Below are positions 6,339 to 52,574 of a DNA stretch of 64,000 bases, piece by piece. Below the pieces are notes generated by a model that did no database searches, was not told the DNA's origin, and saw only the letters and a list, made by a program, of their open reading frames with translations. Position 1 is the stretch's first letter. Each line of letters opens with the position of its first letter. Position numbers and translations under genes: made by a program. Where the stretch lies: NCBI GenBank assembly GCA_963765205.1, contig CAVXVB010000007.1, positions 192,001 to 256,000 on the forward strand. The letters run 5' to 3'. Origin of the DNA: an uncultured Verrucomicrobiae bacterium (GTDB taxonomy: Bacteria > Verrucomicrobiota > Verrucomicrobiia > Opitutales > JABDGR01).

Positions 6339-9300
6339 GCTTCGGCTCGCTTTCGGCGGCGACCCTGGGCGGCTTGACCGGCAATCAAAACCTGGCCTTG
6401 ACCAATGGGACCAGCGCGGCGGTGGCTTTGACGGTCGGCCAAAACAATGGTTCGACGGCTTATTCCGGCAACCTGACGGGCAGCGGCAGCTTGACCAAGT
6501 CCGGAACGGGCATCTTCACCCTCGGCGGGTCGGGCGACAGTTACTCCGGGGGCACGACGGTCACCGGCGGTCTGATCAACTTCAACGCCCTGGCGCAGTT
6601 TGGCTCCGGAGCGCTGGTGCTCAGCGGCGGTGGCGTGCAATACACGCTGGGCCTGACGGCGGACGTTTCGAGCCTCATCGGGGCGACGGGCCTGGGCGCG
6701 GGCAACGACACGATTGACACGAATGTCAACAACGAGACGTTTGGGACGGCGCTGGGCGGGGCCGGCACGCTGGTCAAGGCCGGCGCCGGCACGCTGTTCC
6801 TCTCGCGGCATGACACCTACACCGGCGGCACCATCATCACCAACGGCCTGATTGATTTCACCTCGGTGGCAAGCGGCTCGACCAACTTTGGCACGGGCGT
6901 CATCACGCTGGCCGGCGGCGGGTTGCAGTATTCGGTCGCCAGCACCGGCACGGACGTTTCGCCGAACATCACCCTGGGCACCGGCCTGGACACGATTGAC
7001 ACGAATGGCACGACGGAAACGTTTGCCACCTCCGTGCCGGGCACGGGCACTTTGGTGAAGGCCGGCGCCGGGACGTTAATTCTGGACGCGGTGGAAGGCT
7101 ACACGGGCGGCACCGTCATCAACGTGGGCACGCTGCAATTGGGGAATGGCGCGGTGAACGGCTCGATGAACGCCACGCTGCCGTCCTTCAGCAATATCCA
7201 GGACAACGCGGTCCTGAACTTTGACGAAGCCGGCTCGACGAGCTTTGGCGGCATCATCTCCGGCACGGGTAATCTGACCCAGGTGGCGGCGAACACGCTG
7301 ACCCTCACGGGCGCCAGCACCTTTGACGGCACGGCTTCGATTCTCTCCGGCGGCACGTTGACCCTGGGCATCAGCACCGCGCTGCAAAACGCGACGCTGT
7401 CATATACCACCACGGGCGGCGCCTTTAGCTTCGGCAGCCTGCCCAATGCGGCTTTGGGTGGCTTGAGCGGCAACCAGACCCTGCCGTTGACCAATAATGG
7501 CAGCGCGGCGGTGGCCTTGACGGTTGGCGCCAATGGCTTCAACACCACGTATAGCGGCATCCTGAGCGGCAGCGGCAGCCTGACCAAGATTGGGAACGGC
7601 ACCTTGACCCTCAATCCGACCGGGACGAATTCCTACGCCGGCAACACGACGGTTAATGGCGGCACGCTGGATCTGGCGAGCGCGGGGGCCTTGAGCAACG
7701 CCGGCACGAGTGCGCTCATCGTCAACAACGCCAGTGTGCTCAACGGTCTGGGCGGCGCCCTAAGCATCAACAACAACCAGACGTGGTCGGGCAATTTGAA
7801 CTACATTGGCAGCTTCACCTTTGGGAACGCCGCCACGCCAAGCACGTTGACCCTGGCGAGCAACTCCACGCTCAATCTTTCGGGCAATGTGCTGGTTTAT
7901 AACGTGAACCCGGCCAATGCCACCCTGGCGGGGGCGGCGGGCAACAATGTGAGCATCACCTATGTGAAGCCGGGCACGGCCAATTCGGCGGCCAGCCTGT
8001 CCGTCACGGGCAACGCGATCGTCATCAACCTGGCCACGGACGCCAACGACAATGTGAGTTCGACGGCCAACAGCATTCTCAATTTGATTGGCAATTCCTC
8101 GGTGACCAACGGCACCGCGGCGGGCAATCTCGTGACCGTGGCGCTGGGCGCGAACAGCACCGGCACCGGTTTGCTCAATGCGTCGGCCCTGGCCTCCCTC
8201 ACGGGCGGCAATGCCACCAGCAACGCGACGCTGACCAGCATTTTTGGGACGACGACGATTAATGACGCGATAGTGCAGACCGGGACGCCGGGCGAGACGC
8301 TGGCGGTCACCGGCGCGGGGAATTTGACCTTCGGGGGCAATGGCACGGCGGCGGCGAATCTCACTTCGAGCATCAACGCCCCGCACCTGTCGGTGACGGG
8401 CAATGAAGTCATCACCATTGGCACGGGGGCGGTGGTGAATGCGGGGGCGCCGAGCAACGCCACGAACCAAGGCTACAATGTGTTCGGCTTCAATCCGGGG
8501 GACAATGTCACGTTGACGCTGACCGGCAACGGCATCTTGAACAGCGGCAACGTGGAAGTGGGCTTGGGCAACACGGGCGCCCTGCAAGGCGTAATCAACT
8601 CGACGCTGAATATCGGCGGCACTTCGCAACTGACCGCGAACGACCTGTGGATCGGCGAGGGCAGCACGGGCGACTCGGTTTCCGACTTTACGACGGCGCT
8701 GGTCAATCAAACCGGGGGCACGGTGATTTTGACGGGGAACAGCGCCGGGGGCGGCGGGTTGCAATTGGGCGGCCAATTCTCCTATGTGCTCAGTTCGACC
8801 AACGTAACCTACAATTTCAGCGGCGGCAATTTGGAGACCACGTCGATCGTGGCGGCGAATGTCGGCACCACGGGCTCGGTGTTGTTTAACTTCAACGGCG
8901 GCATTTTGACGGCCCTGGCCAACAGCAGCATCGCGGGGGTTAATGGCGCCACCGCGAACACGACTTTCATTTCGGGCGGGGCCCTCGGGGTCAATTCGCT
9001 GGTGGACAACGCGGGCGGGGCGATCATCAACACGAACGGCTTTAACATCACGATTGCACAGAATTTGACGCACAACCTCACCTTGGGCTTAACGCTGGAC
9101 GGTGGTTTGACGAAGGTGGGCGCGGGCACCTTGACCTTCCCGATTACGCAGAACGACACTTACACGGGCAACACGACGCTGGGCAACGCCACCACGGTGG
9201 GCGGCACCTTGAATGTGTCGCAAGACAGCGCGCTGGGCGGCAATCCGAATGCGACGCTGATCTTTGGGAACACGGCCACGCTGCAACTTGGCTCGACCTT

Positions 9301-43350: not shown

Positions 43351-43950
43351 ATGAGTAAGAACACCGACCCCCGGGTGGACGCCTATATCGCAGAGGCGGC
43401 GGAATTTGCACGGCCGATTCTGCGGCACCTGCGCACGCTGATCCATCAGGCCTGCCCCGCCGCGGAGGAAACCATCAAGTGGCATTCGCCGTTTTTTGTC
43501 CATCACGGCATTCTCTGCTTCATGTCCGCGTTCAAACAACATTGTGCTTTCGGCTTCTGGCGCCAGGACATGCGGACGTTTTTGCAAAAAGACGGCGCGG
43601 ACACCCGGGGGCGTCTGCGCCGCATTACGTCGTTAAAGGACTTGCCCGATGATCGCACGCTGCTGCGTTATATTCGCGAGGCGGCGCACTGCAATGAAGC
43701 CGGCATTCCTGCGCGGCCTGCTCCAAAATCCAAGCCCGAGGCCCGGCCGCTGGCCGATTTGACGAAGGCCTTGCACCAAAACAAAGCCGCCGCCGCGACG
43801 TTTAAGAAATTCAGCCCAAGCCAGCGGCGGGAATATGTCGAATGGATCACCGGGGCGAAACGGCCGGAAACGCGGGTAAAGCGCCTGACGACCACGATCG
43901 AATGGCTCTGCGCAGGCAAACCGCGCCACTGGAAATACCAAAGTGGTTAA
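43351..43950 (+). CDS. YdeI/OmpD-associated family protein (DUF1801 N-terminal domain)
   Basis: DPRVDAYI...EETIKW.SP.F; C-terminal FSPSQRREYVEWITGAKRPETRVKR. Confidence 0.88.
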   Translation: MSKNTDPRVDAYIAEAAEFARPILRHLRTLIHQACPAAEETIKWHSPFFVHHGILCFMSAFKQHCAFGFWRQDMRTFLQKDGADTRGRLRRITSLKDLPDDRTLLRYIREAAHCNEAGIPARPAPKSKPEARPLADLTKALHQNKAAAATFKKFSPSQRREYVEWITGAKRPETRVKRLTTTIEWLCAGKPRHWKYQSG

Positions 43951-44046: not shown

Positions 44047-45504
<1,458 letters not shown>

Positions 45505-45680
45505 GGGCACAGTCTGATAATGAAAAACGCAGAATGCAAAATGCAAAATAACGAGTTGTCAGTCTCTGCATCCGGACTTTTACCGGGCTGTAACGGGCCA
45601 GAAAAGGCATGTACTTTCTGCGCCTTCGGCCGATAGCTGACTTATCCTGACTTTCGCAACTCCCTCTTTCCAAGGGACTT

Positions 45681-45710
45681 AAAATGGTCGGGCTGGAGAG
45701 ATTCGAACTC
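45681..45710. repeat. att site (tRNA-distal copy of the tRNA-Pro 3' end)
   Basis: AAAATGGTCGGGCTGGAGAGATTCGAACTC is identical to 52346-52375. Confidence 0.95.
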
Positions 45711-45767
45711 AAATGACTCTGAATCGGAACCCGTTGACAGTAAAAAGATAGCGAAATCCACGCCAAA

Positions 45768-45793
45768 CCGGGTACTTGAAGGAGGCACCGACG
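45768..45793. repeat. 26-bp direct repeat, copy 1 (candidate integrase arm site)
   Basis: CCGGGTACTTGAAGGAGGCACCGACG is identical to 52199-52224. Confidence 0.85.
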
Positions 45794-45908
45794 CACCGGT
45801 CATGCCGTGCCCCGAGTTGGCGCGTGTTGTCACCGTTTGGGAAAAGTTACCGCCTGCCCTTCGTGTGGCCATTTTGGCCATCGTTGATTCAACGAAAGGG
45901 GGCCGGCC

Positions 45909-46145
45909 ATGAACACCTCCGAGCAACAACGGCGGCTGGAAGCGTGGTATGCGAAGGCGCAAAACTACGACAAGTCGTGGCTCGCGCCGCATTTCAGCAC
46001 TTGGCGCAAGGGCAAGTCGCGGCCTCGTGGCGAACCGCCGCCCGCGTCAACCAGCACGGTATTTGACCGCCTGGTGAAGCTCGGTGTCCTCGAAAAAATC
46101 GAAGGGCCGATTTCAAAACGGCGTGAATGGGAGGAAGGAACATGA
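45909..46145 (+). CDS. Small hypothetical protein upstream of rep
   Basis: 78 aa; G-rich SD-like sequence upstream; ATGA overlaps at both ends. Confidence 0.6.
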   Translation: MNTSEQQRRLEAWYAKAQNYDKSWLAPHFSTWRKGKSRPRGEPPPASTSTVFDRLVKLGVLEKIEGPISKRREWEEGT

Positions 46146-47302
46146 ACGCCCTCATCCCAGCCCGGGCGTGCGAGGGGCCGGATGCGCCCGCGTCAGCGGG
46201 CGCGCCGGCCCCCGCCGCCCGAAGCGGCGAGCGTAGCGAGCCGCTTCCTTGTCAACTAATCATTAACAGAGACGAAACAGCTTCGTCGGCTTCCAAGCCC
46301 AACCCACAAAGCAACTTACAAAGCGACAATACCTCGTATCAAAAAAAGGCCGCTTACGCCCTCCACCTCAACTTAGCCAATTTCATTGATACGGCTGGCA
46401 TTGACCATGTCCTGGAATGGACGCTCACTTTTGAGAAGAAGGTTTACGATTACGAAGAAGCGCAACGGGCCTTCCATAGCCTGAGCCGTCGCATCCTGCC
46501 GAAATACTTCCCTGGCACCTGGTGGCGGGTCATTGAACGCCATGCCGACGGAGCCTGGCACTTTCATTTGCTGGTCCAGGTGCCGGTTGATGTCCGCACT
46601 GGTTTCAATTTCCAATCATTCGAGGCCGCCAAGCGCCGGGCCAAGACCCACGGCCAGGACGGCGTCTATCGGATGCTCATGCGCGAGGCTGCGCCGCTTG
46701 ATCACCCCATCCGCGCCCTCTGGAAAGCCATCGGACTCGACCTTTGGGGCAAGCCTGCACGGTCAAAGAATCGCCATCCTGGCCGTCATGGGACTGGCAA
46801 GCGAGCTGCACGGCGTCGTCTGCGCCGGTATAAGTTTGGGCGCTTTCAACTCTGCCCCATTCGCACCTGTGGCAAGGCCATGGGTCGCTACCTCTCCGGT
46901 TACCTCGCCAAAGGCTACGCGGACCGTAAACCCGGCGAAAAACGCTACCGCCTCTATGGCTGCTCCCGAGCGGCATCCAAAAAACGCATGGCTGGGGCGC
47001 AATTCTGCTGGGTCGGTGGCAATGCCAGGGTCTGGCGAAAGAAAGTCGCCCTGGTCGCCCAACGCTTCGGCTGCCGCGACATGGATTCACTCAACCGCCT
47101 CTTTGGCCGCCGCTGGGCCTACAAACTCCGCGAATTCATCCTGGCCCTCAACGTCCCTCATCCTCCCGACCTCGCCAAGTTTAGCGAAAGCGCCCGGCAG
47201 GAATACGAGCAATCCCTCCAACGCCAAAACGAACCCATCCTCGACACCATCTGTCTCCACGCCCAATACCACGCCCTGAGCCGCATCAATCGCGCGAGAT
47301 AG
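46142..47302 (+). CDS. HUH rolling-circle replication initiator (Rep)
   Basis: Motif I WTLTF, motif II WHFHLLV and motif III YLSGYLAK (YxxxYxxK); SD GGAGG precedes ATG 46142. Confidence 0.85.
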   Translation: MNALIPARACEGPDAPASAGAPAPAARSGERSEPLPCQLIINRDETASSASKPNPQSNLQSDNTSYQKKAAYALHLNLANFIDTAGIDHVLEWTLTFEKKVYDYEEAQRAFHSLSRRILPKYFPGTWWRVIERHADGAWHFHLLVQVPVDVRTGFNFQSFEAAKRRAKTHGQDGVYRMLMREAAPLDHPIRALWKAIGLDLWGKPARSKNRHPGRHGTGKRAARRRLRRYKFGRFQLCPIRTCGKAMGRYLSGYLAKGYADRKPGEKRYRLYGCSRAASKKRMAGAQFCWVGGNARVWRKKVALVAQRFGCRDMDSLNRLFGRRWAYKLREFILALNVPHPPDLAKFSESARQEYEQSLQRQNEPILDTICLHAQYHALSRINRAR

Positions 47303-47649
47303 GCCAGGTGCAGGGGCGGCCTGAGCCTCCTGCTACCGACAAGCTGAATCCACCCTTTACCGCCAATGCCTTGGCTCGATGCCGCCGGTTAAGCGCAGTC
47401 CGTGCAAAACTTGTTTTGTGACGGTCTGCGTCAGGCGGTCGAAATCATGTGCCCGCAGTCCGGCGCGCGGATGGGCGGGAGATGAAGCGCATGCGAAGCG
47501 GACGCACAGTAGCGCCCCGGTCTGCGGGATGGACGCAAAATTGCTTTTGACTCACTGTTGACCAATCAGTTACATGTAGCAGCTACTCACGCTAGCACTG
47601 ACAAAGTGTCGGCATTTCGTACCTTCTGTCCGGTTCCTTGCTTCATGCC

Positions 47650-47820
47650 ATGATTGATCATCAAAAGCGTATCGAGGCTGAATTGGAGAAGGTGCGCAAG
47701 CGACTGCTTGATCTTTCTCATGCAAACAGACTGCTTAATTTTCGTCAGACAAAACGATCAACAATCAGAATCGTCCATGAGTCACCAGATATCGGGCTGT
47801 TGCGACGCAAATACAATTAA
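47650..47820 (+). pseudogene. Truncated N-terminus of a DUF4011-type helicase/nuclease gene
   Basis: LEKVRKRLLDLSHANRLLNF resembles the DUF4011 N-terminal LLDLSxRNxLLNF motif; the ORF stops after ~56 aa. Confidence 0.6.
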
Positions 47821-48002
47821 GTCAGCTAAATTGGCTATCAATGCAGCGCAGATAATCGCAAGAGGCACTCCAACTGATGCCGGCATTCTGAGAAATCCCG
47901 CGTGGGATGGGCCCAATGCAGGAGCTTCAAGGTTAATTGAAATTGTCGAATTTCTACAAGCCGAACGAAGTAATCTAAATTTACTCTTAAAGACTGCAGC
48001 TT

Positions 48003-48416
48003 TTGATTCTTCTGCCGCAGATTTATATCTCGGCCTCAAGTCTCTTAACCAGAGAAAATCCAGATCAAACTAACCCTGGACTCTCACCAGATGAGGCCGT
48101 GGAGGTTTTTAATGAATTGAAAAGCAGGGATCTAATTCAGAATCAGGTCATTAAGGATCAAGGTATAAATGGAGGAATTCCGTTTTTAGCCTACAAAATT
48201 AATGCCAACCGCAAGGTTGAGTGGATGGAGACCATAGGTAAAACGGGTATTATTGAACTGTGGCTTAAACCATGGGCGCGGTATATTTGGGGTACAAAGG
48301 CAACGGCAATCAAGGCCTTTTTCTGCGCAGTTGCTTTAGCCTTTTTCGTTAAACTGTCGGGGAACTTTGCAGACTACACTTGGGGCCTCCTGCGCTACAT
48401 ATGGCGACGTTTCTGA
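48003..48416 (+). CDS. AT-rich hypothetical protein with C-terminal hydrophobic segment (start uncertain)
   Basis: 137-aa ORF in the low-GC cargo region; TM-like AFFCAVALAFFVKL. Confidence 0.45.
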   Translation: MILLPQIYISASSLLTRENPDQTNPGLSPDEAVEVFNELKSRDLIQNQVIKDQGINGGIPFLAYKINANRKVEWMETIGKTGIIELWLKPWARYIWGTKATAIKAFFCAVALAFFVKLSGNFADYTWGLLRYIWRRF

Positions 48417-48435
48417 GCAGTATATTCTGGAATAA

Positions 48436-49383
48436 TTATAAATTTGGATTTTTGCCAAACAGCGCCGCTGACCGTTGTTCCATCAGGCGATGGTATTTAT
48501 CGCGAAGTGCTGCTGGGAGGAAGCTGCGCTTGATTAAATCTCTCCATTGAGGAAGCGCCGCCCTTAGATCGGCCATGATGCGCGCGGCTGTGCGGTCATT
48601 AAGACCCAGGCGTTGGCGGGCGAGGTAGTCGGTCAAATCCCCGGGACTCAATTTCCGTTTTTTTCCATTAAGCGGCAGGGCGCTTTCCTCCTGCGGCGGC
48701 GGCAGGTGAATCGTCGTGTTGAGAAAGTCATAACAGGGCGCAAGTTTGATTACGCCTTCCAAGGTAATGACGGAATAATTCTTCAGGTGCATGTCTTCAT
48801 TGCCCAACTGCCAGTTCACGAGGAAGCGGCGATAAAAGTCAGCCAGTTCAATGCTGGGAAAGGTGCAGCGCTGCTGAATAATTTTGATCACGTCCTCGAC
48901 TGATGCGCTATACTTCGATTCACGGCTGGCGCCACTGAGTTGGGCAAAGTCTTCCACGGCCACTCTCTGATCCCGGTCCACCCGGTCAAATCGCCGAATC
49001 CAATAGACCAGGCTGTCGTCTTTTGCATAGAGCATTCCATGGTCGGGCACCGCCAACCCGGCGATTTGGGCCAGGGTCATGGTCAGCGCCTCGTTTTCGG
49101 GCAAGTTGGGATACTGCGGATTCTGCGGCTTGAGGATAAAGCGCCCGCCCTGATCCACAATTTCCATCCGCCCCTCTTTGATGCGCAGCACCGCGCTAAG
49201 CTTGGGCTGCACGCCCTGAATGGACATCTTGGGCGCACGCGCCGCGGCCTCTTGAATCAGCGCGGCGGAATCGAAGGGCAAGGGAGCCAGGCGCTGCAAT
49301 TGCGGATGCAAGCGCCGCAGGCCAGCGGGCGAAAAATCGCCGGCCTTGGGCACGACCTCGTAAGTAATGGGGCAGCGGTTCAT
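48436..49383 (-). CDS. HipA-family Ser/Thr kinase toxin (HipT-like, lacks the N-terminal subdomain)
   Basis: MSIQGVQPKLS P-loop, ILKP, RRFDR, EDFAQL, GNEDMHLKNYS and LAPCYD. Confidence 0.92.
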   Translation of the reverse strand: MNRCPITYEVVPKAGDFSPAGLRRLHPQLQRLAPLPFDSAALIQEAAARAPKMSIQGVQPKLSAVLRIKEGRMEIVDQGGRFILKPQNPQYPNLPENEALTMTLAQIAGLAVPDHGMLYAKDDSLVYWIRRFDRVDRDQRVAVEDFAQLSGASRESKYSASVEDVIKIIQQRCTFPSIELADFYRRFLVNWQLGNEDMHLKNYSVITLEGVIKLAPCYDFLNTTIHLPPPQEESALPLNGKKRKLSPGDLTDYLARQRLGLNDRTAARIMADLRAALPQWRDLIKRSFLPAALRDKYHRLMEQRSAALFGKNPNL

Positions 49384-49703
49384 GTCACGGCCTCCACGGT
49401 GACATCCCCCACCAAGTCCTGGCCCACCACGATCAGTTGGCCAAAAAAATCACTGCGGTCAAGTTTGCGCGCTTTGAGCAACGCCTCCAGTTGCATCCCT
49501 TCCGGCAGCAGGCCGTCAAAAAATGGTGGAAAGCTTTTCCATTCCCATTCGCGTTGATCAATCGGCATCGTCAGGGACACGGGCGGCCCTTGGTAGGATT
49601 CGTCGTAGGAGAATCGAAAGCCTCCCGGTGTTTCCTCCAAAACGCCGGCGAGCACCCGCGCCTTGAACACCTTGGCCTTGCGAAAGATGGTCTTCGTGCT
49701 CAT
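49380..49703 (-). CDS. HipA N-terminal-domain protein (HipS-like)
   Basis: AGVLEE...FRFSYD...PVSLTMP...FPPFFDGLLPEG; 4-nt overlaps with both neighbours. Confidence 0.9.
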   Translation of the reverse strand: MSTKTIFRKAKVFKARVLAGVLEETPGGFRFSYDESYQGPPVSLTMPIDQREWEWKSFPPFFDGLLPEGMQLEALLKARKLDRSDFFGQLIVVGQDLVGDVTVEAVT

Positions 49704-49918
49704 GTGAGCGGAACCTCCTCTTTGCCAAGCGGCGATTTTGCCGTCACGCGAATGTTCAGCGCGCGCAAAACGCGCACCAGGGTTTCGTAACGAACGGTGG
49801 TTTTGCCATTTTCCAAATCCCAGATTACAGTCTTACCCACGCCCGCAAGCTCTGCCAATTGCTGCTGGGTCAGTCCAGCAGCCTTGCGGGTTTGAACAAT
49901 CAGGTCTACGAGGCTCAT
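49700..49918 (-). CDS. HipB-like XRE-family HTH regulator
   Basis: RKAAGLTQQQLAELAGVGKTVIWDLENGK. Confidence 0.92.
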   Translation of the reverse strand: MSLVDLIVQTRKAAGLTQQQLAELAGVGKTVIWDLENGKTTVRYETLVRVLRALNIRVTAKSPLGKEEVPLT

Positions 49919-50077
49919 TACTGTTAAGGCGGTAAAAGACCTGTTTTATTGTCAAAATCGGCCAGCTTTGCAACTAAAATCTAAATTTATACCGCTTCGG
50001 CGGTATTACTTTGACAATTTCCTAGGGATGTTTTCCGTTTTCGCCTTTGGAGGCAAGCATTACCGCTGAGGCGGTAA
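49918..50077. promoter_or_regulatory. Three 18-bp palindromic operators (consensus TTACCGC-N4-GCGGTAA), probable HipB sites
   Basis: Sites at 49918-49935, 49989-50006 and 50060-50077; starts are 71 bp apart. Confidence 0.75.
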
Positions 50078-50121
50078 ATTTAATCGAGAAAACAACTTTT
50101 AATTAATTGATGAAATAGTGA

Positions 50122-50149
50122 TTGACGAAACGTTTTTTTAGACTATTTT
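50122..50149 (+). promoter_or_regulatory. Candidate sigma70 promoter for a leaderless ORF240-alpA-int transcript
   Basis: TTGACG-N16-TATTTT, then 6 nt to ATG 50156. Confidence 0.45.
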
Positions 50150-50155
50150 GGTTTC

Positions 50156-50878
50156 ATGAGCGAAAATTCATTCCCTTTTGTAGTCGTCCCGCCCGAGATG
50201 GAAAAGATCATTGGCACGCGGGTCGGGCCCTCGCATGTCTGGCGTCAGTCAGGCTCTGAGGAAGAATGCTCGGCTTGGTTTGATGCCCTTTGCGAGTGCG
50301 CGGGCCGATGCGTAAGCCCCGGCGGCGTTAGCATGTATTGCCCGGTTTCCCGCGCCGCAGTGCATCGGCGGGTCAAAGACGGCAAACTCTCCTTGTTCCT
50401 GTTTCATGTAACAGAGAACAAAACGGGTCTATTTCGACGCGGCCGCGAGGTTCGCACTTCACCTTACGGCTTCGTCCCGGTGAGTGAATGCAAGGCTTGG
50501 AAAAAAGAATTCGAGGACCGGGCGGTGCGCCAAGAAGAGATCACCCGGGAGGAATTAGAAGGGGCCAAACCGGACTGGGATGGTGAGTTTATCCAGTGGG
50601 ACTCCCGCTGGCAGCGCGAACAACTTGAAGTTGGCGGGCCGCGCGACATTGATCTGGCCATTAAATTGTCCAAGACGGAAATCGAGAGTTTGAATAGATG
50701 GGCGAAAGGTTTCGGAATGGCGGATGGAAAAGCACTGGCCACGATGATTTTGGGCGACGCCATCTATGGCGGACTGAGCGCATATAGCTTTATGAAGCTC
50801 GGCATGAAAATGGCCCGGATGATCGAAAAATCCGGCATCGGAGTCGTCGAATGGAAGGAATTCTTCAAATGGAGCTAA
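50156..50878 (+). CDS. Hypothetical protein, possible DNA-binding regulator
   Basis: 240-aa ORF; VSRAAVHRRVKDGKL resembles an HTH recognition helix. Confidence 0.65.
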   Translation: MSENSFPFVVVPPEMEKIIGTRVGPSHVWRQSGSEEECSAWFDALCECAGRCVSPGGVSMYCPVSRAAVHRRVKDGKLSLFLFHVTENKTGLFRRGREVRTSPYGFVPVSECKAWKKEFEDRAVRQEEITREELEGAKPDWDGEFIQWDSRWQREQLEVGGPRDIDLAIKLSKTEIESLNRWAKGFGMADGKALATMILGDAIYGGLSAYSFMKLGMKMARMIEKSGIGVVEWKEFFKWS

Positions 50879-50880
50879 AA

Positions 50881-51096
50881 ATGCACAATTCAAATTCCAC
50901 CACCTCTAGCGAACCTGACCGACGCCTGCGCAAGCCGGAAGTGCTCAAGCTCATTGGCTATGAAAATCGCACTTTCTATCGGCGGATTGCGGCTGGACAT
51001 TTCCCAAAGCCGGAAAAAGATGGCCGGATGTCGTTCTGGCGGTTGAGCCAGGTGCAAAAATTCTTGGGCAATAACAACGGAGGGCAAACCACATGA
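50881..51096 (+). CDS. AlpA-family regulator / excisionase
   Basis: RRLRKPEVLKLIG...TFYRRIAAGHFPKP...W; ATGA overlap with the integrase. Confidence 0.88.
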   Translation: MHNSNSTTSSEPDRRLRKPEVLKLIGYENRTFYRRIAAGHFPKPEKDGRMSFWRLSQVQKFLGNNNGGQTT

Positions 51097-52574
51097 GATT
51101 TCGCGTTTACATTCCCCACCGCAACGAGGTGAGCAAAACCCGCCGCAAAATCTACTTTGCGGAGTTGCGCATTGATAACGAGCACAAGCCCGTTTTCCGC
51201 AGTCTTGGCACGACGGACAAGCGCGTGGCCGACAAGAGGGCGGAGGCGTTGTTTCAACAGTTGCAACAGGAGGCCGCCGGCGTGCCGACAGTAAAGGCGC
51301 TCACGGAATGGGCAGATCAGTCCCTCGCCAGTTTATCCGAGTCGTTCCTGCGCGATCTCCAAGCCCGCAAAAAATCGAAGGCTACGGTTCGCAAATATGG
51401 AATCGTGCTGGCGAAGTTATTCAAGGAATGCGGCTGGACCACCTTGCGCGACCCGAACGCCGTGCGCTTTGATGAATGGCGGGTTACAGCGGGGCGGAAG
51501 CCGAAAACACTCCATGACTACCTGGGCATCGCCAAAGAGTTCTTCAATTGGCTCGTGAAAAAAGGCTTGCTTCCTAAAAACCCGCTGGAAAATACCGATC
51601 AGGTCAAGCTGCTGGATGAGGATGATTTCCGGTTTGCGCTCTCCCATGAGCAATTAAGCCAGCTTTTCAAGTCGGCGCCCGATATGCGGGCCTTCATCTA
51701 TCGGGTGCTCTACTACACCGCCCTGCGGCGCAACGAGGCCAACCACCTGACCTGGGATAACATCAAATTGGACATCGAGCGCCCGGTCATCATCGTCAAG
51801 GCGTCGGTCGGCAAGAATCGCAAGCCGGACATCATCGAAATCGCCCCGGCCATTTTGCAAGAACTTCGCGATTTTCGTCCGGCAAACTGGCAACCCGAGG
51901 CGCGGGCCTTCTTCGGCCATGTCCCCAAAGTCGAAACGCTGCGGAAAGACCTGCTCAAGGCCGGGATCAAGCCGGAAGACACTTTGGGCCGCCGATTCGA
52001 CCTGCACGCCTTCCGCAAGACTCTGGGCACACATATGGCGCAAGCGGGGGTGCCGATGCACATTACGCAACGCGCCTTGCGGCACCGTGACATCAAGCAG
52101 ACAACGAAATACTACACGGACAAGGCGCTCCTTTCGACCCAGGGCGCGTTTGCCAGCATCGCGGAGTTTTGGAAAGTCTCTCAAGACCCCGAAAATGGCC
52201 GGGTACTTGAAGGAGGCACCGACGATAGGGGCATTTCAGGGCCTTTCATGTCACGCATTGACAATAATGGATACGGAGCGCCTCCTCCGCAAACCCCTGA
52301 AGATGAGCCTTCTAGGCACGTTCTGACACCGGTTGACACTGAAGAAAAATGGTCGGGCTGGAGAGATTCGAACTCTCGACCTCTTGCACCCCATGCAAGC
52401 GCGCTACCAGGCTACGCTACAGCCCGAATTGATACCTCTGAGACCGGGGAAGGGTTAAGGCTACAGGCTCGCCGCAGGAGCGCAAGGAGAAAAGGAGGCG
52501 GGGCTAAAGCTGGGGGTTTTTGGGGTTTAGCGTCTGCGGACGGCTCGGAGAGCCGTCCCTATCAAACTGCGTGA
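51093..52574 (+). CDS. Tyrosine recombinase/integrase; ORF reads through att and antisense across tRNA-Pro
   Basis: YTALRRNE (Arg), HAFRKT (HxxR), LRH and TTKYY (Tyr); N-terminal RSLGTTDKRVA arm-binding-like region. Confidence 0.93.
   Translation: MRFRVYIPHRNEVSKTRRKIYFAELRIDNEHKPVFRSLGTTDKRVADKRAEALFQQLQQEAAGVPTVKALTEWADQSLASLSESFLRDLQARKKSKATVRKYGIVLAKLFKECGWTTLRDPNAVRFDEWRVTAGRKPKTLHDYLGIAKEFFNWLVKKGLLPKNPLENTDQVKLLDEDDFRFALSHEQLSQLFKSAPDMRAFIYRVLYYTALRRNEANHLTWDNIKLDIERPVIIVKASVGKNRKPDIIEIAPAILQELRDFRPANWQPEARAFFGHVPKVETLRKDLLKAGIKPEDTLGRRFDLHAFRKTLGTHMAQAGVPMHITQRALRHRDIKQTTKYYTDKALLSTQGAFASIAEFWKVSQDPENGRVLEGGTDDRGISGPFMSRIDNNGYGAPPPQTPEDEPSRHVLTPVDTEEKWSGWRDSNSRPLAPHASALPGYATARIDTSETGEGLRLQARRRSARRKGGGAKAGGFWGLASADGSESRPYQTA
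52199..52224. repeat. 26-bp direct repeat, copy 2 (candidate integrase arm site)
   Basis: Identical to 45768-45793. Confidence 0.85.
52350..52426 (-). tRNA. tRNA-Pro(GGG), CCA encoded; integration target
   Basis: Reverse complement CGGGCTGTAGCGTAGCCTGGTAGCGCGCTTGCATGGGGTGCAAGAGGTCGAGAGTTCGAATCTCTCCAGCCCGACCA. Confidence 0.97.
52538..52562 (-). repeat. REP-like palindrome
   Basis: Minus strand ATAG-GGACGGCT-CTCCG-AGCCGTCC, the layout of GTAG-class REPs; single copy in this window. Confidence 0.5.

Follow-up and report, generated by a model that had tools for sequence, protein, structure and literature searches.

When an integrase gene spans its own attachment (att) site, what becomes of that gene, and of the genes on the other side of the site, as the element enters and leaves the chromosome? 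The question is raised by an element in a 64,000-nt stretch of contig CAVXVB010000007.1 from an uncultured Verrucomicrobiae bacterium, a soil organism (the whole stretch is called the window here, position 1 is its first letter, and all coordinates below refer to it). The initial annotation of the window had proposed that att lies within the integrase gene (int), and that joining the element's ends would couple int to the gene for a rolling-circle replication initiator (rep) in the circular form. The reading that we consider likely is that this is a 6.7-kb integrative rolling-circle element with attP, the attachment site of the circle, inside int, that integration splits int while excision rebuilds it and joins it to the rep operon, and that the arrangement is family-wide.

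The element and its divided integrase gene

Exact 30-bp direct repeats at 45681-45710 and 52346-52375 (repeat search, 100% identity) bracket the element, which occupies 45681-52375, measures about 6.7 kb (6,665 bp between the repeats) and is inserted in the 3' end of tRNA-Pro. The features that define its ends and its integrase are as follows.

45681..45710, no strand: attL core, the left copy of the 30-bp repeat, a displaced 3' fragment of tRNA-Pro plus 4 nt
45711..45912, + strand: detached 3' piece of int, 67 codons and a TGA, joined in frame to int in the circle only (profile E = 1.6e-20)
45768..45793, no strand: P' arm repeat, identical over its 26 bp to 52199-52224; it begins 57 bp past the core and lies inside coding sequence
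45811..45891, + strand: predicted helix-loop-helix tail of Int, PELARVVTVWEKLPPALRVAILAIVDS, which includes the family's invariant Trp
51093..52574, + strand: int in its chromosomal form, 493 aa, with a tyrosine-recombinase core to about residue 346, then a linker, att and a host-supplied antisense-tRNA tail
52199..52224, no strand: P arm repeat, identical over its 26 bp to 45768-45793; it begins 147 bp ahead of the core and lies inside the int linker
52346..52375, no strand: attR core, the right copy of the 30-bp repeat, lying within the int ORF (open reading frame) and providing the 3' end of the intact tRNA-Pro
52350..52426, - strand: tRNA-Pro(GGG), the integration target

The Int protein matched PF00589 over residues 183-344 (64.3 bits against a cut-off of 27.1 bits) and the integrase family phrog_1 (8.6e-40), and residues R212, H305, R308, H331 and Y341, to which we assign catalytic roles from the pattern of this family (Arg, His-x-x-Arg, His/Trp, Tyr), were invariant in an 11-sequence alignment. 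Its N-terminus presumably resembles an arm-binding domain, in line with a weak, sub-threshold Pfam match to DUF6538. The Pfam catalytic domain ends at about residue 344-346 and is followed by about 147 more codons, which lead through att and then antisense over the tRNA. Y341 is encoded at about nt 52113, and because att lies about 75 codons beyond this catalytic tyrosine, the catalytic ORF stays whole after integration.

As the initial annotation had stated, int has no stop before att, and its 493-aa ORF passes through att and continues antisense over tRNA-Pro. At attL the int frame has a codon start at 45682 and is open to the TGA at 45910-45912. Joining the two 30-bp att copies accordingly kept the frame open for 67 further codons, the joined ORF comprising 1283 + 202 = 1485 nt (494 aa and a stop). 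The proposed exchange of integrase tails was also reproduced in silico, as a 494-aa circle form with a conserved tail and a 493-aa chromosomal form with a tRNA-antisense tail. Absent from that earlier account were the family-wide occurrence of the design and the 26-bp P/P' pair, both copies of which lie in the int frame. Counting both arm repeats, attP extends over about 260 bp and is contained entirely within the 3' third of int; its parts are, in order, the P arm repeat, 147 bp, the 30-bp core, 57 bp and the P' arm repeat.

Joining of the integrase frame across the family

Every database relative of Int, over a range of 88% to 25% identity, terminates in an antisense-tRNA peptide, and these peptides differ in kind. 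The set of loci that was compared consisted of 80 genome loci, 80 metagenome loci and the window (161 sequences, 118 clusters at 90% identity). The int ORF ended inside the locus in 148 of these sequences, and in 133 of the 148 it extended at least 60 codons past the catalytic domain (median 88, interquartile range 80-97). It overlapped a tRNA gene in 86 sequences, in the antisense direction in all 86, the tRNA genes belonging to 14 isotypes. An integrase gene that spans att in this way is usual throughout a large family found in Verrucomicrobiota and Planctomycetota, whose tRNA targets are many and varied; the named records come from Opitutales, other Verrucomicrobiota, Phycisphaerae, other Planctomycetota and Kiritimatiellae. 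Close relatives (L001, L002 and L081-L083) are 82-90% identical to the window's element over the integrase core, and their sequences end short of attL. A tblastn search of a phage collection gave remote catalytic-domain matches only (112 records, all below 60% identity). Convergent pairs of family integrases were observed in L058, L061, L068, L070, L076, L084, L119, L126, L127 and L136, about 430 bp apart in L070 and L076; each such pair apparently reflects the tail-to-tail insertion of two elements at a single site.

A profile was built from 25 attL-side tails and searched against six-frame translations of all loci. The tail motif was found in 40 sequences, 34 times upstream of int on the same strand, five times directly downstream of int, and once on the minus strand, downstream of another int that converges on the first in that locus. 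In the 34 loci with an upstream tail, the best att-type repeat was joined in silico (in L054 the join was made at the arm repeat, as the core repeat was not found there). The joined int continued in frame and stop-free into the motif in 29 of the 34 loci, L054 included (28 of 32 clusters at 90% identity, covering at least 11 tRNA isotypes), whereas frames +1 and +2 of the joined DNA were stop-free in none of the 34. The total joined tail amounted to about 130-270 codons, and the binomial p for frame alone, counted by cluster, was 3e-10. In-frame joining is thus beyond chance, and conservation of the open frame in circularised homologues from the Planctomycetota-Verrucomicrobiota-Chlamydiota (PVC) group, which had been suggested as a check on the original proposal, was observed.

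The window's own genome contains five family integrases and five tails, the window's element included. The tRNA-Ser elements on C2 and C9 were joined in frame by a core-type repeat, and the C5 element had just a 12-bp repeat, which is probably not its core. The other family sites in this genome are C2:119260-125974, C2:152245-153231, C5:44518-53653, C9:825056-830874 and C9:326600-326752; one int had no tail detected nearby, and one tail had no int detected nearby.

The arm repeats were likewise found across the family. A P/P' direct repeat of the observed quality was reached by at most 2 of 200 shuffles in 23 of the 28 circularised elements, and the window's 26-bp repeat by 0 of 200. In most elements the P copy starts about 130-170 bp ahead of the core and the P' copy about 36-64 bp past it, and in 19 of 23 elements both copies share a codon phase. 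Many of the arm repeats are tandem dimers with a period of 11-13 bp, encoding peptide repeats such as DSQIDSQ and GSHIGSH. In attP sites of the lambda type, arm-type integrase binding sites flank the core; by analogy with that layout, the P/P' repeats probably represent putative arm-type Int binding sites within coding sequence.

Past attL the tail follows the pattern L..VV.AW..LP..LRAAILAIV, with an invariant Trp, and the conserved Leu, Ala and Val positions are encoded by four to six synonymous codons (39 sequences). AlphaFold2, run on the tail alignment, predicted two helices in the window's tail (34-43 and 48-62 of its 66 residues, with predicted local distance difference test (pLDDT) scores of 85-95), with a poorly ordered lead-in ahead of them. 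Selection on the helix-loop-helix tail thus acts at the protein level. From the core to the first helix, an in-frame start codon (ATG, GTG or TTG) was present in 6 of 28 tails only; the other 22 have no start codon there, and the tail is therefore no separate gene in most elements. Prediction of a complex between the tail and the Int core returned no verdict (score 0.00). C-terminal segments of other tyrosine recombinases govern tetramer assembly or directionality, and by analogy the helix pair could do either.

None of 160 contiguous int ORFs contained the tail motif. Against 1.84 billion representatives the tail profile matched 8,274 cluster representatives (E <= 0.001); the best 150 of the 8,274 matches were all 40-290 aa long, with the motif at the C-terminal end, and none was integrase-sized. 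A profile search limited to longer proteins returned one 155-aa protein and no native full-length circle-form Int. The tail, orf78 (the small gene between tail and rep) and ORF240 (a companion gene of int) had no match in Pfam or PHROGs, a search of the ESM Atlas with the tail gave unnamed Planctomycetota clusters only, and a PDB profile search with the tail gave nothing below E = 0.36. Databases evidently hold the tail detached, as small orphan ORFs. Taken together, the sequence comparisons strongly support the view that the stretch past attL is the conserved C-terminus of the integrase family, in frame only once the element is circular.

Coupling across attP and alternative explanations

In the circle, ORF240, alpA and int were placed directly upstream of orf78 and rep, and in the integrated form they are separated, in agreement with the initial annotation (in silico, with stop/start overlaps at both junctions on the way into rep). 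The genes and the candidate promoter concerned are listed below.

45909..46145, + strand: orf78, a small gene, 72% identical in L003
46142..47302, + strand: rep, rolling-circle (HUH-type) initiator
50122..50149, + strand: sigma-70-like site (9/12 matches) just 5' of ORF240, a weak candidate promoter of ORF240-alpA-int
50156..50878, + strand: ORF240, a conserved companion gene 5' of alpA-int
50881..51096, + strand: alpA-like excisionase/regulator; longest ORF from 50851

The gene overlaps described earlier all hold: the orf78 ATG at 45909 overlaps the int-tail TGA (ATGA), the orf78 TGA (46143-46145) overlaps the rep ATG at 46142, and the alpA stop overlaps the int start at 51093-51096 (ATGA). 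The rep ATG at 46142 is preceded by GGGAGGAAGGA, and the ORF list also gives an upstream ATG at 46127. Because the relatives of alpA align from residue 10-11 only, its start is probably at 50881, two bases past the ORF240 stop, rather than at 50851; the protein matched phrog_9834 (1.7e-12) and, weakly, PF05930. The match of rep to PF23343 was borderline (27.9 bits, cut-off 27.8), that to phrog_3419 was 1.4e-8, its translation shows an H-F-H-L-L-V stretch (HFH motif, read by eye), and tblastn found rep homologues in 12 other loci. For ORF240, tblastn matches lay just 5' of int in 39 loci, with the N-terminal 120-160 residues conserved, and this gene is a candidate regulator of the module.

Across the family, an NTGA overlap between the tail stop and the following start was present in 24 of 39 loci (18 ATGA, 5 GTGA and 1 TTGA), which corresponds to 62% for NTGA and 46% for ATGA at the tail versus background rates of 18% and 7%, respectively, among 1,574 mechanical ORFs of the same loci. 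A rolling-circle Rep, assigned by PF23343, Rep_1, Rep_trans or weak RepSA matches, is the first sizeable gene past the tail in 27 of the 39 loci. Final tail codons reading KGG-R/Q-P, together with CC-ATG-A, recur across elements whose integrases are about 30% identical, and this recurrence suggests that the closing codons of the tail also provide the next gene with its ribosome-binding site and start. Gene order and overlaps show int to be physically coupled across attP to orf78 and rep, and this coupling is conserved. A minimal element of 2 kb was noted at tRNA-Cys in L019 (9154-11190), with little beyond int; there the tail stop overlaps the start of int itself, and the circle would therefore be one nearly endless reading frame.

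The sequence of events that these arrangements point to can be set out as a model. In the in silico reconstruction, integration splits int past the catalytic domain, so that the resident copy keeps its N-terminal and catalytic domains and gains a meaningless host tail, the last 67 codons, helix-loop-helix included, being left at the opposite end of the element. Excision, in the same reconstruction, rebuilds full-length int and brings ORF240-alpA-int directly 5' of orf78-rep. Transcription and translation begun at the int end might then cross attP into the replication genes, ribosomes ending full-length Int would be passed on to orf78 and rep, and replication would follow excision. The circle would be the source of full-length Int, at the stage when integration is needed, and the truncated, junk-tailed Int would serve excision with AlpA; the two integrase forms may differ in activity. 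A promoter scan found a sigma-70-like site just 5' of ORF240 and none between attL and rep (a weak argument), and on the + strand the only gene 5' of attL in the window is argH, which runs in the opposite direction. The nicking Rep would accordingly be made mainly or only from the circle and be largely off in the chromosome. The sequencing runs comprised six DNA runs from two studies and no RNA run; low-depth Logan contigs from four runs showed no joints, an outcome that bears neither way on circles or expression.

Several observations weigh against this interpretation. Five of the 34 circularisations failed: L033 and L149 have an indel in the repeat, L044 a run of N, and L143 and L145 are a decayed pair in which int stops 19 codons past the domain. 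In L050, L071, L077, L112 and L133, int, core and tail are contiguous and the junction, about 240-320 nt past the int catalytic domain, departs from the frame by 1 nt. L050, L077, L112 and L133 combine a P repeat of one type with a P' repeat of another, and for that reason these four, not L071, are read, short of proof, as hybrids where unlike elements meet after tandem insertion at a single tRNA; the integrated relatives L070 and L076 have matching P/P' repeats and are in frame. A programmed frameshift is a less preferred explanation of the out-of-frame junctions, and mutants locked as episomes are a possible one. As to replication, the NTGA overlap is missing in 15 of 39 loci and a Rep past the tail is not shown in 12 (in seven the first sizeable ORF has no Rep domain, in three there are other genes or int, and two contigs are too short), so that the coupling is better described as frequent, and as a coupling to the next gene, not strictly to rep. 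In L076 (1849-1937) and L146 an intact tRNA lies in sense directly 5' of the detached tail, and in elements of this type tRNA read-through could transcribe the tail and rep during integration. The promoter scan, finally, covered sigma-70-type sites only, performed overall no better than on shuffles and is not informative for these phyla.

These last points bear on an alternative in which the split of int is real and rep is not gated by excision, being served by a promoter of its own inside or just past the int tail (within 45711-46141) or by reading from outside, with the overlaps reflecting compact packing. Overlaps are indeed common, as the background rate of 18% illustrates, and they are absent at the tail in the 15 loci mentioned; in the opposite-facing elements the tRNA promoter aims into the tail, and the uninformative scan leaves room for such an internal promoter. 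The enrichment of overlaps at the tail speaks against mere packing, as do the recurrence of the KGG-R/Q-P and CC-ATG-A motifs in spite of low integrase identity and the orientation of argH, and we regard ungated rep expression as a possible but, on balance, unlikely account. A different proposal concerns the role of the tail, which might be a stability or degradation signal rather than a recombination module; Int made from the circle would then be shorter- or longer-lived than the chromosomal form. This idea draws on analogy with mycobacteriophage BPs only, whereas the tail is a well-predicted amphipathic helix pair and not a short unstructured tag, and the outermost tail residues are variable and seem adapted to the next gene's ribosome-binding site and start; we consider the idea improbable.

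It is more doubtful still that Int functionally ends soon past the catalytic tyrosine and that the open tail is read-through resulting from G+C-rich DNA and the sequence needs of attP. At the protein level the int linker shows little conservation, the arm repeats and the tRNA core determine most of its sequence, and the host-supplied Int ends differ among relatives, all of which would fit such a view. The helix-loop-helix past att, however, is conserved in amino acids with synonymous change free, is always in the int frame, and lies in DNA whose other two frames always hold stops, which makes this explanation very improbable. Hardly credible, in our judgement, is the notion that the tail is a small gene in its own right, situated at the element's left end and in frame with int by accident. 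Gene callers do list thousands of stand-alone small proteins ending in the tail motif, and the window's tail has an in-frame ATG nine codons ahead of the first helix; against this stand the many tails devoid of a start codon, the joined frames that remain open over such lengths in 29 of 34 loci, and a linker of nearly constant length. The preferred reading therefore remains that of an integrase gene divided by integration and restored on the circle. A more far-reaching version of it, which we put forward tentatively and with less than even confidence, would be that attP, some 260 bp long, lies inside Int coding sequence in thousands of elements, where recombination would toggle between an integration-competent and an excision-only Int and would make or break a translationally coupled xis-int-rep operon; directionality and replication would then be controlled without a dedicated regulator, in a bacterial counterpart of the archaeal self-splitting integrases.

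The remainder of the element carries cargo, and ordinary genes flank it.

48436..49918, - strand: three-gene HipBST-like toxin-antitoxin set (cargo), comprising a helix-turn-helix (HTH) protein of 72 aa, a HipA N-terminal-like protein of 107 aa and a HipA_C kinase-like protein of 315 aa

The Pfam scores of this set were 1.5e-12 (HTH_3), 8.2e-22 (Couple_hipA) and 1.9e-46 (HipA_C); the name HipBST is the one that we take to apply, and the module probably stabilises the element. The stretch 47600-48400 is low in G+C (42-45% versus about 60% around it), contains two overlapping + strand ORFs (139 and 137 aa) without a Pfam match, and looks like separately acquired cargo. In the chromosomal flank, argH (44047-45546, - strand; name read from the translation) abuts attL, and a DUF1801/OmdA (YdeI-like) protein is encoded at 43351-43950.

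Relation to known systems

For annotation, the arrangement implies that family integrases carry wrong, host-derived C-termini and that the real tails are filed as thousands of "hypothetical proteins"; in-silico circularisation in island-finding and gene-calling tools could fix both errors. Prospecting of integrases as tools would likewise need the circle-form gene, not the chromosomal ORF. The element is a compact case of DNA rearrangement restoring an element's own gene and operon, in which protein-coding and protein-binding constraints (arm sites, tRNA core) share the same 260 bp. It offers a testable model of how a small element might hold a nicking replication protein off in the chromosome, with a possible bias between integration and excision in the absence of extra regulators. 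A design thought typical of archaeal viruses and one myxophage now extends to a large, little-studied bacterial group.

Myxophage Mx8 integrates at a tRNA gene. In the Mx8 record, a tRNA-like antisense stretch lies about 60 residues past the catalytic Tyr, with about 110 residues beyond it. The initial annotation had named Mx8 and SSV1 as precedents for attP within int, aptly so according to passages of PMC6070905, PMC4383910 and PMC8371274. As described in passages of the first two papers, Mx8 attP is located in the 3' part of int (IntP/IntX), past the catalytic tyrosine, and integration creates a new 3' end while the enzyme survives (PMC6070905, PMC4383910). Mx8 Int thus shares the layout of a tyrosine integrase with the att core inside the int ORF, an exchanged C-terminus and an intact catalytic protein. 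It differs in having no detectable tail similarity (hhalign probability 0.6%) and a core of remote similarity only (BLASTP, 24% identity over 102 aa, E = 0.003), and the likeness is therefore one of architecture, not family membership. The Mx8 int stop at 6809, moreover, lies clear of the following gene, p13, which begins at 6857, and Mx8 is a 49.5-kb tailed phage, whereas the window's element is a small Rep element. In the suicidal integrases of the SSV1 type, att lies in the integrase ORF and the gene is whole only on the circle; the 2021 review concerned presents self-disrupting recombinases as exclusive to archaea (PMC8371274). There the cut parts the N-terminal portion from the catalytic domain and inactivates the enzyme, whereas the window's int swaps only its last 67 codons. 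Phage_integr_3 (PF16795), given in a passage of PMC8371274 as a mark of the SSV1 type, was not among the Pfam matches of the window at E <= 0.01.

Other bacterial elements share single aspects of the design. The ORF of DsiB, from the Dehalococcoides ssrA islands, overlaps att, and its full function may require the circle or a neighbouring tandem island, according to passages of PMC3146451. DsiB is, however, a serine recombinase whose overlapping part is divergent; its authors left the matter open, and those passages describe neither a conserved tail nor replication coupling. In the integration-dependent immunity of mycobacteriophage BPs and relatives, attP lies in a gene, and the proteins made from the integrated and free forms differ in C-terminus and behaviour (PMC4557955). 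The split gene of BPs encodes the repressor and the part lost is a degradation tag, whereas in the window's element the split gene encodes the integrase.

Celli and Trieu-Cuot reportedly described, in 1998, transcription across the joint of Tn916 that depends on circularisation (a work cited in PMC5812530). Promoter switching is also found in ICEKp1, where genes at one end are transcribed from the other end only once the ends are joined (PMC13023037). These links are transcriptional and run over a non-coding joint, whereas the joint of the window's element lies inside an ORF with stop/start overlaps.

The attP of pSAM2 lies downstream of int, and its operon is intact in both states. Actinomycete integrative and conjugative elements of the pSAM2 type are small and tRNA-targeting, and they carry a tyrosine integrase, an excisionase and a rolling-circle Rep in one rep-xis-int operon (passages of PMC2440964). 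Some Reps of the window's family give weak RepSA matches, a further likeness to the pSAM2 type. A Pfam scan of a subset of 12 window ORFs turned up no transfer-gene family, whether FtsK-like, as expected of the pSAM2 type, or other. The order on the window's circle is ORF240-alpA-int(attP)-orf78-rep and is cut by integration, in contrast to the rep, xis, int order of the pSAM2 operon. A literature search, which did not cover subscription journals, returned no account of the PVC family, its tail, its coding arm sites or the coupling of int to rep by way of attP. Mx8 and SSV1 provide known cases of attP within an integrase gene; previously unrecognised, as far as that search shows, would be a large bacterial family that adds to it a conserved tail, coding arm sites and replication coupling.

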